This document shows, piece after piece, positions 22,860 to 27,490 of a DNA stretch of 64,000 nt. Every line of letters starts with the position of its first letter. The first letter of the stretch is position 1. The notes beneath the pieces are model-generated. The model did no database searches and was not told the origin of the DNA. It worked only from the letters and a program-made list of their open reading frames with translations. Location: NCBI GenBank assembly GCA_039621445.1, contig CP154954.1, forward strand, positions 30,694,395 to 30,758,394, read 5' to 3'. Origin of the DNA: Euglena gracilis (Eukaryota). The translations under genes and the position numbers were made by a program.

Positions 22860-25800
22860 GATCCCAGTAATCATCCACAATAACGTATCCCCCAGGGGAC
22901 AAGAAAGGATAGAGAGGGGGCCGGAACTGGAGCACACCTCTCCCGCCTGTCTGTCACCTCTCCCAGAAAGAGCAAACAAGACTTGCAGGCCTACCCAAGG
23001 AAAAAGGGGGAACTGCTGGGAAAGCGGGAACAGGGGAATGATTGATTTTCAACCGTAAAAACAGGCAAAAAGATAACCCAACCCAACACCCAACACTGCA
23101 TTTTGTGCACTGTTTCACAGGAAATGTGCTGAAATCAGACAAAACCACAACAAACCAAACAGCGAGCCGGTCATCCCCTGGCGAGCCCCACCAGCCAGCC
23201 TGGGGGAGGGGGGGACACACACAGCGCAGTGAGTGACAGTTTCCAACAAACACCCACTCCCAATCCGCAGGAGTTTCCCCGAAAAGATTAAAAGAGATAT
23301 AGGGTCGCACCACCATCTTTCAGAATTCCAAAAGCAAACCAGCCATCACGACAATGAGCCCCATCCCGATAAGACAAACGACTCATAAACGCTCTCATAC
23401 AAATCTCCATCGAGGCGAATGACAGCAAAAGAGGTCCAGCGGGTCACCTGTGATCAAGTTCATGGTGCATGTCTATAGAATACAAGGTCCAGTTAGCAAT
23501 AATACACACTGGAGATGGGGTTTGCGGGACACAGAGGGATTGCTGAAATATGGCAAACGGTAAACAGAAGAAATGTCATTTAGGCTCAATCAAAGAAAGA
23601 GTAGGAGGGAAAGGGGTGAGGACAAATATCGCAGGTGAGGACAGAAATATGTTACTTAAGCGGTGTAAAAAGTGACTTCACTGCAAAAAGTGGTGATTGG
23701 ATGTGTTTCTTCACAATAGTGAGTGTAAACATATGCGAGTATTTATTTATTGCCAAAGAAATGTTTTTGAAAATGCTATGAATCTGAACATGGTGAGGAG
23801 AACAAGTGACTTTATTCCTTCTTTGCTTTGGGCAATGTCTCGTTGAAATACCCAGGAAGCCATTTTACGCTTTCGCCAAGGAGGCGATTCCAGGCCACCT
23901 GGCCTGTTGAATCCCCACCACAGAGCATTTTGGCCCAGATTCCAGGCGCCAGCACAGAAAACGAACGTCCCTCCAGTGACCAACTCAAAGTGGGGAAAAA
24001 GCAAAGTGATGAACCTGAAACAGGACATTTTTTGCTGCTGCTGCAGTGAGAACATACATTCCTCTCCGAGCACGGGGAATTTTCATGTTCTGGGCTCCAG
24101 CCTGGTTCAGCCAGCTCAACCTCCCCCCATCATGCAATAACGGGCGGGGGGGGGGGGAGGTCCACCCTCCGATTTCAAAAAAGTCCATCAGCGTTGGAGG
24201 TGAAACTGTTAGTGTTGGCAAAAATCCCTTAAAAGGTTTGAAAATTGTCTCCGGCGGTTGGCACCGTTCGCACAAATGTGAGAAAACTATTCCTGGAGCC
24301 CCAAACCAAAACGGCACTGAACCGCAAACCAGACAGCCATTATTTTTCCGGGTCATTTTGCTCCCAAAATGAACACCTTGAAAAAAAAACATCAAAAAAT
24401 TAACATCAGTTGGTTGCAACAATTGACATTTGTCAAATTTTATCCATTATGTGTTATGAAAATCGCATTCACCTTCCCACGTCCACTTGAACATAATGGG
24501 AAATGGAGCAGAAAGACCAAGTTCAAAAGGGGGGAGGTCAGAAAGATCAACAACATTGGGGGTAAAAGGGGACCGCCAAAGGTTTCCAAATAAGCAAGAG
24601 TCGAAAAATTAAAAAACGAATGGTTGTTTTGCAAGGCAGATGCCACGCCGATAGCAGAAAAGTGTCAGCCAGATGTTGAGAAAAGGGCAGACTGCCAGAG
24701 GTGTGCTGCATTCAAGACCCACTCCCTTTTCCAGCGAACACTTGGCTGACAAAAGCTGCGGTCCGAACAGGAGGGTGTCCATTGGACACAGCTGTTTGGC
24801 AAAGGCGAAATTCCACTCACAATAACAAAAGTTTCTGTCCGAACAGGGGTGCTCGTTGGACATGGAGGGGGGACTGAATGTGAACTTATTCTGCAGGGCT
24901 GTGGTTTGAAGAAGCGGCCTGCGTCATACTGGTGGAAAGACCCCTGTACGGCGGCCAGGCTGTTCTCGTTCAATATGCGTAACGTGTGCATCCCAGTGTC
25001 GTGGCATGGCTCCCTTAGAACAACAGCATTTTGGAGAGCGTACGTGAGGTTCAGAGTAGCGGAGTGGATGGAGGGTTGAGGGCGGAATCTCTTCGACATT
25101 CTTTACTGAACAGCTTAAGCACGACGGCCTTCCATCGCAAAGAGGAGGGGGGCTGTTTCTTCACACCCAACAACCTCCGACCCAAATCACAGGGCAGAGC
25201 ACTCCCACGGCCATCGTGGTGCTTTTTGTCCACGGCCCATGTGGACAGAGGCAAGGCGAACCTTCGGCAGGGAAGAAACACCTAGGAACACCTATTTGTA
25301 GGAACACCTATTCGGATGAGAATTCATCCAAAAAAAAGTTGATGAAAGCTTTGCAGGCGTCCAATGCCCTCCCAACGGAACGAGGTTGTTCATTTTTGTC
25401 GAACCTTTGGTCGCCTCATCTTGTCCTCTTCTTGAAAGCGCGTTTTTGAGTGTGAGAAAATAGGTGCTTTGTATTGTTGGGATGGAGAAGGAATGCCTGT
25501 GCCTGCCCCTTCCCATTCCGTACGCTTAGCTTGCCTCTTGTCCAACGAATCCCACGCGGGAGAAAGCAATCGTGGCTCAACACACCGTGCGGCAAGCTGA
25601 TCCTCAGCCAGCGACTATTTTTTCAGTGCTTAAATATCAGCCCAGGGTTCGACTCTGGGCGGTTGCTGAGTGGGAAGGGCAGGAAGGGCAGGGAAGGGCC
25701 CACCTTGGGTTGGGGCAGCCCTTCGAAAGAATCGGCCAGCCACACCTTGCGCTGGGGGACCTGGCCGTACGCTCGGAACAGGGCCGCGGCCATCAGGCGG

Positions 25801-26064
25801 AGGGCAGGGCAGCCTCCGCCCAGTCTGCCTCGCAAACCCCCAAACCTTTTTTGGGCGGGCTTGGAGCAAAGCCCTAAGTTTGACCCTAGTTCATAGGCAG
25901 GTTTGCAGGTGGGTGTGTGGATAGATAGGAGGATGAATAGAAGGTGGGTAGATAGGTTTGGAAAATAGGTTTGAAATTGAGTATGTTGGTATTGATTGGT
26001 AATAAATTTTTACAGGTCATGGCAACCAATAAACTTTATTACTGTTATCATTATTACCAATCTA

Positions 26065-26104
<40 letters not shown>

Positions 26105-27490
26105 TTGTTGTTGTCGTCGTCGTCGTCGTCGTCGTTGAATGGGAGTATGTGCCCATGGGGCGTGACACAAATACCACACGATAGATGAGGTTAGGCCAAA
26201 AGACAATTGACATATGCCTTGTTAGTGCGACATCCGTTTGGTGACTATGAGAATAATGGCATCGCTCCACGATATCTGGGGTGCCACTCAGCCTAACCCA
26301 AGACAGGACTGACAGGTGAGCAGGAGAGACATGGCGACAGGAAACAAACCACACCAGGGGGATGGAGAGTCCAAACTGTCCATAATCCAAATGAAAGCCC
26401 ATATTCCAAATAAAAGTTGTCCATATTCCAAATAAATACAAATGAGAAACAATTGCTTTTGCAGTTGAAAACACCTGCCCAAGATGGGGTTCATTATTTG
26501 GGAAGCCAGCAGACCGTTTGGGTGGGGATTCCGCGTGACATTGGTTCCGTGAAACTGGTTATGGTGAAAACGTCTGGGCTTTGGTTGCGTAGCGTCGCGA
26601 AAATCAATGGAATGGAAAATGAATTTTGAGCATACTCAACATTTGGAGAAGAAAGCAAAAATAGAAGGGGAAGAGGGTCAAAATTAGTCCACTTCCTGCA
26701 AGCAGCCAACCTAAAGTCGAAAATATGTGGGGGATTTCTGCCCCAACAATTGTCCAGGTCAGTTTGGCATGCACTCAAATTAGACACCTCCCACAGTATC
26801 ATCAGAGAACATGTTTCCAGCAATGCAAAAACCAAAGAGTCCCAAACTCTACTCAACAGGTCTGTATCCCTATTCTTCTTGGTGCTGCTGAAGCTGCACG
26901 TAATAGGCTTTGGCAAGGCAACCCCACAGCACAAACCGCCTCGCCACACGCCTGTTTCGATGAAATCGCCCGGCACACCGCGGAAGATGGCGTCTTCAGT
27001 CTGAGACACTAGCTAGCAGCCCGGTGACCTTTTTGAGACACATTTGCTTGCGAGAGCATGCCGAATCGCTGACAATCAGACCAAAAATATTGGCCAGCAT
27101 AATCCTTTGCCCCATTCAGCACATTCCCCATTTTTCTTTCAAACCCCCAGCAAGGGGGTCAGCCACCCTTCTTTGCTTGCCATTGTCAAAGGAACCGACT
27201 GGGGTTACTTTTGGTCATTGCATTTTGCTGGAAGACCCAGAGGGCTAATCGTGAAATCCATTGGGAGCTCAGCATGAGCTGATTTTTGAGCTTTTTGCAG
27301 TTTCAATTTCTTCAGACCTGGTTCAAACCCAGCTAACCAGCAGCCTTTTCCAGCCAGCCCAAATTTTCCAGCCTTTGAGCATGGTGTAAACGCGATGCCC
27401 TGGTCCTGTGCCATGTGGTCTAGGAAGAGGTCCAGCAGAAAATTTCTTGTGTGAAGCTCCGCGAAAAAATAGTAAATGGTCAAGAATGAG
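22860..27490 (-). CDS. TylF/MycF-family SAM-dependent O-methyltransferase, multi-exon host gene, termini unresolved
   Basis: Exons 27000-26931, 25798-25705, 25552-25544, 25240-25217, 25001-24925, 23885-23814, 23437-23372 and 22916-about 22860 join in frame to ...[28 protein letters not shown]...KVWLADSFEGLP...YGLLGESVKWLPGYFNETLP...FAVIRLDGDLYES...LYPFLSPGGYVIVDDY. Probable upstream exons: about 27490-27381, 27181-about 27170, about 27105-27074. Confidence 0.9.
23886..24924 (-). other. Euglenid-type nonconventional intron, 1039 nt
   Basis: TATG|acgCAGgccgc...gtggcCTGgaatc|GCCTC: CAG at +4..+6, CTG at -8..-6, 8-bp stem, no GT-AG; splicing restores YGLL. Confidence 0.85.
26065..26136. repeat. 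(GTT)n(GTC)n microsatellite inside a TylF intron
   Basis: Directly visible. Confidence 0.95.

Follow-up and report, generated by a model that had tools for sequence, protein, structure and literature searches.

Introners in Micromonas and Aureococcus are said to be DNA transposons that, together with their target-site duplication (TSD), supply both splice sites (reportedly Huff et al. 2016), and the maize element Ds reportedly acts as an intron (Giroux et al. 1994). Those introners have GT-AG borders and are removed by the spliceosome, whereas the introns described here are of a non-spliceosomal type that the inverted ends of the element would guide; the shared property, here a prediction, is the joint loss from the mRNA of the element and one copy of the duplication. 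The introner elements of Amoebophrya are, like the introns studied here, non-canonical and bounded by terminal inverted repeats (TIRs; 8-20 nt in Amoebophrya), and carry short direct repeats that span the borders of exon and intron, which were read as MITE-like (PMC7789003). These direct repeats measure 3-5 nt, compared with the 8 nt implied for Euglena, and where the cuts fall with respect to the hairpin is variable in Amoebophrya (PMC7789003) and fixed here. Repeated intron families are present in Amoebophrya (PMC7789003), whereas no near-identical intron families were seen in our window.

For about 30 years it has been an open question how euglenid nonconventional introns arose and by what mechanism they operate. 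Proposals of a MITE-like source date from 2014 onwards, with no source element named; transposable elements were then not known in euglenids (PMC3935182). The consensus of these introns lies at +4 to +6 and -8 to -6 (PMC3935182, PMC4770533), CAG(G)/(C)CTG has been considered as a potential 'fingerprint of the source sequence', and the Y|R pattern is identical at both junctions (PMC4770533). The Euglena code, 5'-N3CDG-/-CH'GN5-6|R, is experimentally defined: cuts fall 3 nt ahead of CAG and 5 nt beyond CTG, the spacers of 3 and 5 were demonstrated by knock-in, and a 3' spacer of 6 nt was tolerated (PMC12501133). The tolerance of 6 nt indicates that a sum of 8 is not a strict requirement of the machinery.

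The window, meaning the whole 64,000-nt stretch of Euglena gracilis DNA analysed, contains a TylF-like methyltransferase gene of about 29 kb (Table 1), and the region singled out in a preliminary description (22917-27380) is the middle part of this gene. Exon joining gave a single open frame running to the stop, and the start codon is the first ATG downstream of an upstream stop. Pfam TylF (PF05711) was matched by three exon-bearing ORFs, of which two exceeded the curated cut-off, and the matches run in profile order (83-107, 108-136 and 213-230). Joints were taken from two presumed-RNA contig runs, with one contig from each per joint, and were also supported by 2-7 raw RNA reads per joint; this evidence covers the best 15 of 719 joints. 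The RNA joints in 20501-40500 defined 10 introns, and none of the 10 joints was present in a DNA run searched for them (0/10). Three further introns were deduced from loose ends of the same RNA contigs, and an 18-nt micro-exon (13628-13645) separates introns 12 and 13.

Table 1. Coordinates of the TylF-like gene, its introns and the inverted-repeat elements in the window. Slide, number of nucleotides by which a junction can be shifted; elements are named by their first position.
Feature	Coordinates	Strand	Length	Slide (nt)	Joint, or TSD	Ends, helix and remarks
TylF-like O-methyltransferase CDS	13020..41944	-	278 aa			14 exons, 13 nonconventional introns; start codon 41944-41942, stop codon 13022-13020
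Intron 1	31205..41924	-	10720 nt	2	loose contig end at 31204, located at 41925-41954	helix N3/N4, not N3/N5; contains 32030, 36061, 36808 and 39113
Intron 2	29202..31138	-	1937 nt	0	29201->31139	AGC|CGG..TTG|CGTCT; N3/N5, 6 bp
Intron 3	27687..29097	-	1411 nt	2	27686->29098	1-nt slide gives CTG..CAG in N3/N5; 15 bp including terminal G.U pairs
Intron 4	26998..27651	-	654 nt	0	26997->27652	helix N3/N4, 7 bp
Intron 5	25797..26928	-	1132 nt	2	25796->26929	2-nt slide gives N3/N5, 7 bp
Intron 6	25247..25710	-	464 nt	0	25246->25711	ACC|CAAGG..CCTTG|CCTCT; N3/N5, 11 bp
Intron 7	24993..25210	-	218 nt	3	24992->25211	2-nt slide gives N3/N5, 5 bp
Intron 8	23886..24924	-	1039 nt	0	23885->24925	ACG|CAGGCC..GGCCTG|GAATC, canonical CAG/CTG form; 10 bp
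Intron 9	23438..23813	-	376 nt	1	23437->23814	N3/N5, 9 bp
Intron 10	22917..23371	-	455 nt	0	22916->23372	CGG..CCG, N3/N5, plus one outer G.U pair
Intron 11	20779..22863	-	2085 nt	0	20778->22864	CTG..CAG, N3/N5, plus one outer G.U pair; contains 21344 and other repeats
Intron 12	13646..20715	-	7070 nt	0	loose contig end at 20716	GTA|CAAGCACCTGT..ACAGGTGCTTG|CCCAC; perfect 11-bp TIR in N3/N5; contains 15579 and reverse-transcriptase fragments
Intron 13	13101..13627	-	527 nt	0		ACC|CATAG..CTATG|CCTCT, N3/N5
MITE 15579	15579..16019		441 bp		TTCCCAAG, 8/8	CAT..ATG
MITE 21344	21344..21595		252 bp		7/8	CAGGG..CTCTG; new
MITE 32030	32030..32529		500 bp		7/8	CAGGGAATTT..AAATTCCCTG; in short satellite
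MITE 36061	36061..36348		288 bp		GAGCTCCC, 8/8	CAGGGG..CCCTG
TIR element 36808	36808..37604		797 bp		6/8	perfect 16-bp TIR beginning CAGGGCTG, TIR score 14/14; new
MITE 39113	39113..39585		473 bp		6/8	
TIR element 44573	44573..45849		1277 bp		CTCAGGGG, 8/8	CAAGCACCTATGAC / CAGGCACCTATGCC
TIR element 58462	58462..59143		682 bp		4/8 strict; 7/8 with right boundary moved 1 nt	CAGGG..CCTTG; flanking 7-nt repeat CCCACTG

All 13 introns are euglenid nonconventional introns with paired ends. None has GT/GC-AG borders (0/13), and no allowed slide yields GT..AG. Intron register was scored with RNA-allowed slides only, and the N3/N5 criterion was a helix of at least 5 bp whose first pair is Watson-Crick, leaving 3 nt unpaired at the 5' end and 5 nt at the 3' end. 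Such a terminal helix was found in 11 of the 13 introns, compared with 244 of 20000 random pseudo-introns (1.2%). The 5' spacer was 3 nt in every intron (13/13), the first base of the downstream exon was a purine in 12 of 13, and so was the first intron base (12/13). The introns differ from the published set in two respects: two of them (26998-27651 and 31205-41924) have a 3' spacer of 4 nt, giving an N3/N4 register, and strict CDG/CH'G triplets occur in only 4/13 (CTG/CAG twice, CAG/CTG and CGG/CCG), against a published share of 61.2% (PMC12501133). The remaining introns pair through other triplets such as CAA/TTG, CAT/ATG and GTC/GAC. A (GTT)n/(GTC)n microsatellite lies inside intron 5.

The geometry matches the published Euglena code, and is thus real but already known, as the preliminary description had said of the +4 CAG / -8 CTG consensus. 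That description had placed eight junction pairs in the region, each with 3 + 5 unpaired nucleotides. RNA gives seven introns between 22917 and 27651, and across the gene the 3 + 5 arrangement held except in the two 3 + 4 introns. Of the region's limits, 22917 is a true intron boundary, while 27380 falls inside intron 4, which encloses a false exon proposed there. The description had also cautioned that choosing among sliding junctions by the pairing rule was partly circular; sliding leaves the sum of 3 + 5 unchanged, so this worry does not apply to the sum.

At least eight non-autonomous inverted-repeat elements are nested in or near the introns of the gene. Their terminal bases are CA(G)...(C)TG, and they are flanked by 8-bp or near-8-bp TSDs: three at 8/8, two at 7/8, two at 6/8, and an eighth at 4/8 by strict scoring. 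Six had been listed before, and all are real, with the TSD of 58462 off-register; two more were found here. Three perfect 8/8 TSDs occurred among 1545 CA..TG inverted-repeat candidates, for a chance estimate of about 0.02. An unbiased scan for inverted repeats with flanking duplications returned 14 hits, of which 15579 and 44573 have perfect 8-bp TSDs; hits with 9- and 7-bp duplications were read as satellite repeats, and those with 5-6 bp as chance or off-register. CAG stands at one or both ends of six of the eight elements, the others beginning with CAT or CAA, and CDG/CH'G is satisfied in both orientations by five of the eight. The consensus types are CAGGG, CAAGCACC and CAT. MITEs 32030 and 39113 belong to one family, and the summed contig depth of 32030, which is not a copy number, far exceeds that of single-copy bins. 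All MITEs seen are intronic or intergenic, and none is exonic.

The first base of the MITE is the C of CAG and the last is the G of CTG, and the TSDs directly adjoin them. Because the element begins and ends at the bases that the code requires to pair first, and 3 + 5 = 8, excision by the N3/N5 rule would take the element and exactly one TSD copy. This arithmetic, proposed in the preliminary description, is correct for either orientation; in both, excision would be seamless, provided that TSD position 6 is a purine. The best explanation, to which we give an even chance, is that nonconventional introns descend from such transposons, and that exonic insertions are born spliceable. A transposon would insert into an exon and generate an 8-bp TSD, and the new insertion would be spliceable from the start. 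The introns of the TylF-like gene would then be old. Their duplication copies may have decayed because one copy at each position is intronic and unconstrained, and their pairing ends may have been retained by selection for splicing; intron 12 (13646-20715) alone would still bear a terminal repeat by which a local family can be recognised. The link between transposon and intron is plausible and testable, but is not demonstrated by this window.

We hold more tentatively, and at somewhat less than an even chance, that nonconventional splicing and the CAG..CTG transposons with 8-bp TSDs form one system, in which the cutting rule is matched to the insertion footprint. An insertion into an exon, whichever way it faces, would then always be a seamless intron from birth if TSD position 6 is a purine. 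Such a system would account for the N3/N5 code and for the identical Y|R pattern of the two junctions; it would also make sense of the eight-nt repeat found at a new, strain-specific intron and of the high share of nonconventional introns in Euglena, about 70%. Euglena would then neutralise transposon insertions in its RNA, without use of the spliceosome, and intron gain could be observed live. The window supplies candidate source elements and a prediction in numbers: a repeat of 8 nt, divided 5|3 about the CAG..CTG helix. It can be checked in existing genome and RNA data and in the published EgGSL2 knock-in assay. Among the openly readable article texts searched, we found no paper that ties the 3 + 5 spacers to the 8-bp length of a TSD.

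The hallmark of hAT elements is the combination of CAG/TAG-type ends and 8-bp TSDs. The MITEs of the hAT superfamily are non-autonomous, occur in many copies and have short TIRs that start with CAG, and the elements of the window resemble them in these features and in TSD length; no transposase was seen in the window, so membership is putative. The 119 window ORFs of at least 110 aa contained no DNA-transposon transposase of any family, a TIR-sharing one with BED finger and hAT dimerisation domain included; the domains matched were RVT_1 (five ORFs), TylF (two), Phage_integrase, Dam, DNA_methylase and New_glue. The hAT label, drawn from TSD length and end motif, is not proven: TSDs of 8 bp are also produced by Merlin elements, with two such families reported from E. 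gracilis (PMC8101967). That the intron mechanism holds while the elements are Merlin, or belong to another superfamily with 8-bp duplications, is somewhat unlikely. The absence of the hAT domain from the window ORFs is consistent with it, as is the literature: we found no report of hAT in Euglena in the literature searched, nor hAT-like MITEs named in Euglena in its openly readable article texts. However, Merlin ends are conserved as 5'-GG (PMC8101967), whereas the window elements start with CA, and the combination of ends and duplication length points to hAT.

For the descent of the introns themselves from transposons, TSD-like remnants had been put forward at two junctions. One (CACCA|cga / tgcca|CGA, intron 7), scored there as 6/8, needs an mRNA 3 nt longer than the one observed with joint 24992->25211, and the other (ACCAT|gct, at about 27368-27375) lies within an intron. 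At the 13 true junctions, 8-mer identity in the TSD register was 33/104, while mismatched pairs gave about 28% (p = 0.27 by permutation), and 5/13 introns were slidable, against 44% expected by chance from random pseudo-introns. Nested repeats aside, none of the 26 intron ends (200 nt each) recurred elsewhere in the window. The geometry, the MITEs and the sum of 8 in the preliminary description stood, and the remnants did not; its reading that hAT MITEs act as introners here kept its arithmetic, but lost the remnants to false junctions, and the p value and the lack of intron-end copies speak against it.

These results are consistent with coincidence, in which the 3/5 spacing is set by the shape needs of the splicing enzyme, the MITEs are ordinary and the introns are of other origin: the true junctions carry no TSD remnant, no intron in the window is a MITE copy, the strict motif is confined to a minority of introns, and the 3' spacer varies, being 5 or 6 nt in the published code (PMC12501133) and 4 nt in two introns here. 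We nevertheless consider coincidence unlikely, as two independent features match together, the sum of 8 and the C..G terminal bases of the elements. In E. agilis, repeats at the junctions are over-represented across the genome, and 84.4% of its introns can slide, compared with 44% of random pseudo-introns from this window.

Matching of introns to MITEs within the window, although it gave no intron-end copies, did pair the TIR of intron 12 with that of element 44573. The ends of the two match at 12/14, 12/14 and 11/14 positions, a level equal to the left-to-right end identity of 44573 itself, and nothing is in common beyond about 14 nt. The motif CARGCACCT occurs four times in the window, all at the ends of intron 12 and 44573. 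A match of 12/14 to any MITE end was reached by at most 14 of 9391 CA-starting 14-mers, and the estimated p after multiple testing was about 0.01-0.04. A strain-specific, newly gained intron of gapC, intron 4, carries an eight-nt direct repeat (PMC4770533). The shared TIR and this repeat are hints that favour a transposon origin over coincidence.

Break repair was proposed for the eight-nt repeat by the 2016 authors (PMC4770533), and new nonconventional introns could in principle come from double-strand-break repair that leaves short direct repeats, with no transposition. We regard this as improbable: break repair predicts neither a fixed repeat length nor inverted CAG..CTG ends, whereas the window elements have exactly CAG..CTG-type ends and 8-bp duplications. 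Least probable, compared with an origin of the introns from transposons, is the reverse direction, in which introns were mobilised to become the MITE-like elements, for instance by the return of excised circles to DNA through copying, since although nonconventional introns are reported to leave as full-length circles (review PMC11282704), the elements are located in non-coding DNA, and their exact 8-bp duplications and TIRs of up to 16 perfect bp are marks of transposase-mediated integration.

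Reads were mapped on positions 20501-40500 of the window, which is eukaryotic DNA rich in repeats, using two contig runs presumed to be RNA (X15 and X16), raw RNA reads (X21) and one DNA run (X1). Among the best 15 of 719 joints in this interval, 10 had one supporting contig in each of the runs X15 and X16, plus 2-7 raw reads in X21, and none of these 10 was present in the DNA run over 20501-40500. Three further introns were placed from the loose ends of the joint-bearing X15 and X16 contigs. The 30 letters behind 31204 have a single match in the window, at 41925-41954, and the letters before 20716 consist of 18 nt at 13628-13645 and 12 nt at 13089-13100. 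Joining the resulting 14 exons by coordinates gave one open frame of 278 aa, with an ATG at 41944 and a stop at 13020. Pfam TylF was matched by three exon-holding ORFs (profile positions 83-107, 108-136 and 213-230), and two of these matches exceeded the curated cut-off. The open frame and the TylF matches together indicate that the model of this TylF-like O-methyltransferase gene, on the minus strand, is sound. The boundary set at 27380 in a preliminary description, made from the sequence without searches, lies inside intron 26998-27651 according to the RNA joints. A (GTT)n/(GTC)n microsatellite is present at 26060-26135 in intron 5 (25797-26928), where RNA and DNA contigs break.

Splice joints, micro-exons and MITEs (joints in + strand coordinates; TSD, target-site duplication; TIR, terminal inverted repeat)
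Feature	Coordinates	Slide	TSD	Remark
Joint	20778->22864	0		
Joint	22916->23372	0		
Joint	23437->23814	1		
Joint	23885->24925	0		
Joint	24992->25211	3		
Joint	25246->25711	0		
Joint	25796->26929	2		
Joint	26997->27652	0		
Joint	27686->29098	2		
Joint	29201->31139	0		
Micro-exon, 18 nt	13628-13645			nonconventional introns both sides (527 and 7070 nt)
Micro-exon, 36 nt	25211-25246			nonconventional introns both sides
Micro-exon, 35 nt	27652-27686			nonconventional introns both sides
MITE	15579-16019		8/8	
MITE	21344-21595		7/8	new here
MITE	32030-32529		7/8	
MITE	36061-36348		8/8	
MITE	36808-37604		6/8	new here; 16-bp perfect TIR
MITE	39113-39585		6/8	
MITE	44573-45849		8/8	
MITE	58462-59143		4/8	strict register; 7/8 with 1-nt shift

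GT..AG borders were not attainable within the allowed slides in any of the 13 introns. A resemblance to a textbook GT donor (AG/GTGAGT) at 41915-41930 (+), at the border of intron 1 (31205-41924), is on the strand opposite to the coding strand of the gene and is probably due to chance. The intron ends were then scored, over the slides permitted by RNA, for a terminal helix of at least 5 bp with a Watson-Crick first pair, flanked by unpaired spacers of 3 nt (5') and 5 nt (3') (N3/N5). Such a helix was found in 11 of the 13 introns, three of which have additional G.U pairs (one or two) on the outside; in length-matched random pseudo-introns the frequency was 244 of 20000. The helices of introns 26998-27651 and 31205-41924 lack this register and leave 3 + 4 nt. 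The first base is a purine in 12/13 introns and in 12/13 downstream exons, and strict triplets (CDG at +4..+6, CH'G at -8..-6) occur in only 4/13 introns. The preliminary description had cautioned that choosing among sliding junctions by pairing was partly circular. A slide alters the split and not the total of unpaired bases, so the sum of 8 is untouched by this concern. In published work on Euglena nonconventional introns, +4..+6 pair with -8..-6 (PMC4770533), and spacer lengths of 3 nt and 5-6 nt, together with a purine as the first exon base, were established by knock-in (PMC12501133). The intron geometry in this gene is real, and is already published as the Euglena code.

Comparison of ends and flanking duplications upheld all six MITEs listed in the preliminary description. 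Both the MITEs and their footprints of 8 bp are real, and there are more such elements than were then listed. Among 1545 CA..TG inverted-repeat candidates, 8/8 flanks occurred in three, which are exactly elements 15579, 36061 and 44573 (named by left coordinate); we estimate that about 0.02 perfect flanks would be expected by chance among these candidates. A second scan for inverted repeats with flanking duplications, in which end bases and duplication length were left free, gave 14 rows, two of them with perfect 8-bp TSDs (elements 15579 and 44573). The rows at 9 and 7 bp were interpreted as satellite repeats, those at 5-6 bp as chance or off-register matches. The false 7- and 9-bp duplications came from a short satellite at 31960-32620, with units like AAGGTAACCAGCCTCCGCGGAGCC, which surrounds element 32030. 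Both ends are CAG..CTG in five of the eight elements, satisfying the published triplet rule in both orientations, and conformity to the purine rule depends on flank and orientation. All eight elements are located in introns of the TylF-like gene or outside the gene, and none of the eight is exonic. A 24-nt MITE end had no exact match (0 hits) among the metagenome contigs scanned.

In each element the C of CAG and the G of CTG are the outermost bases, with the 8-bp duplications immediately adjacent to them; cutting 3 nt before the element and 5 nt after it thus removes the element together with 8 nt of flank, equivalent to one copy of the duplication. This equivalence, put forward in the preliminary description, is correct as arithmetic on the sequence and the published code, as distinct from observed splicing. 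The numerical match of 3 + 5 with an 8-bp TSD appears not to be in print: searches of openly readable main texts found neither this link nor any hAT-like MITEs named in Euglena. A MITE-like origin of the introns was proposed in 2014, when no transposable elements were known in euglenids (PMC3935182). In their accessible portions, a 2024 review discusses TIRs and TSD-like repeats with the words hAT, 8 bp and 8 nt absent (PMC11282704), and in the 2025 code paper MITEs are named a single time and hAT never (PMC12501133). The most telling point in the literature for a transposon link is an E. agilis intron in gapC, strain-specific and gained recently, with eight-nucleotide direct repeats at its junctions, which the authors attributed to break repair (PMC4770533). 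That paper also gives G/C at +7/-9 in 31/55 introns, and raises as a question whether CAG(G)/(C)CTG is the fingerprint of a source sequence.

The putative hAT assignment of the MITEs is based on their 8-bp duplications and on ends of the CAG type. Among the window's non-repetitive ORFs, the 119 longest were scanned against Pfam, and no DNA-transposase domain was found. PMC8101967 reports Merlin families from E. gracilis that have 8-bp TSDs, and describes the ends of Merlin as 5'-GG. Assignment of the CAG..CTG elements to Merlin with a longer footprint was ruled out: the left CAG and the right CTG form an inverted rather than a direct repeat, and so belong to the element. For the proposed mechanism the 8-bp footprint and the end bases suffice, and the hAT label is dispensable.

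Neither of the two TSD remnants claimed in the preliminary description survived comparison with the RNA. The junction of the first needs an mRNA 3 nt longer than that observed at 24992->25211, and that of the second lies at ~27368-27375, inside intron 26998-27651. The proposed test for 8-nt repeats, applied to the 13 true junctions of this gene, gave agreement at 33/104 positions versus ~28% in mismatched pairs (permutation p=0.27). Junction slides were likewise not enriched in this gene, with 5/13 introns slidable versus 44% by chance; in E. agilis, 84.4% of introns are reported as slidable (PMC12501133). When the terminal 200 nt on both sides of each of the 13 introns were compared with the window by BLAST, only nested repeats matched, and no other copy of any of the 26 ends was found. 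Because there is no excess of identity in the TSD register, no excess of slides and no second copy of the ends, these 13 introns are not recent insertions. Each position of a duplication would have one copy in the free intron spacer, so that the repeat would erode at the neutral rate and the paired ends would be retained. With one copy in unconstrained spacer, the loss of repeats at these introns would be compatible with transposon descent. Descent of the introns from these elements is plausible as a general link, for which we consider the chances to be about even, and this window does not demonstrate it.

One intron provides a further hint. The ends of intron 12 (13646-20715), GTA followed by CAAGCACCTGT...ACAGGTGCTTG followed by CCCAC, are inverted repeats of each other over 11 bp without a mismatch, placed precisely in the N3/N5 register. 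The 9-mer CARGCACCT has four occurrences in the window, at both ends of this intron and both ends of element 44573. In 14-nt comparisons between intron and element ends, 12, 12 and 11 positions match, and the left and right ends of the element match each other at 12/14. Of 9391 CA-starting 14-mers, no more than 14 match any MITE end at 12 or more of the 14 positions, and we estimate p ~0.04 or less for the match over 26 intron ends. BLAST of element 44573 against the window gave nothing at the intron 12 ends, and no likeness beyond the ~14 nt was found. The shared TIR may hint at descent without proving it, and we regard it as a lead. The intron end triplets CAG, CAA and CAT span a range that parallels the MITE ends. 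A degenerate partial copy of the left end of element 44573 (85% over 40 nt) is present at ~22543-22583 inside intron 11 (20779-22863), with no right-end partner found in the window. Many copies of a ~20-nt motif resembling GGGGTGTCTTATATTTGGGG, with long G runs, lie at 22220-22790 in the same intron, and DNA-run depth is very high over this region.

Several further features were observed, among them retroelement ORFs. Large retroelement ORFs at 7860-12650 (-), with matches to Phage_integrase (tyrosine recombinase, 4.4e-5) and RVT_1 (2.5e-9), look DIRS-like, and this ORF set contains a weak Dam-like adenine methyltransferase match (0.0016). A 2026 preprint on retrotransposons with adenine methyltransferases mentions E. 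gracilis. Reverse-transcriptase ORFs are present at 56879-57925 (+) and 59672-63202 (+) (RVT_1, 7.5e-13 and 1.3e-13), and TIR element 58462 lies between the two, directly after an ORF ending at its left border. At the GC-rich left end of the window, an ORF at 825-2084 (-) has a weak, below-cut-off match to C-5 cytosine DNA methylase (E 0.003). A near-perfect palindrome occupies 47764-47865, with 49-nt arms that are 94% complementary and 4 nt apart.
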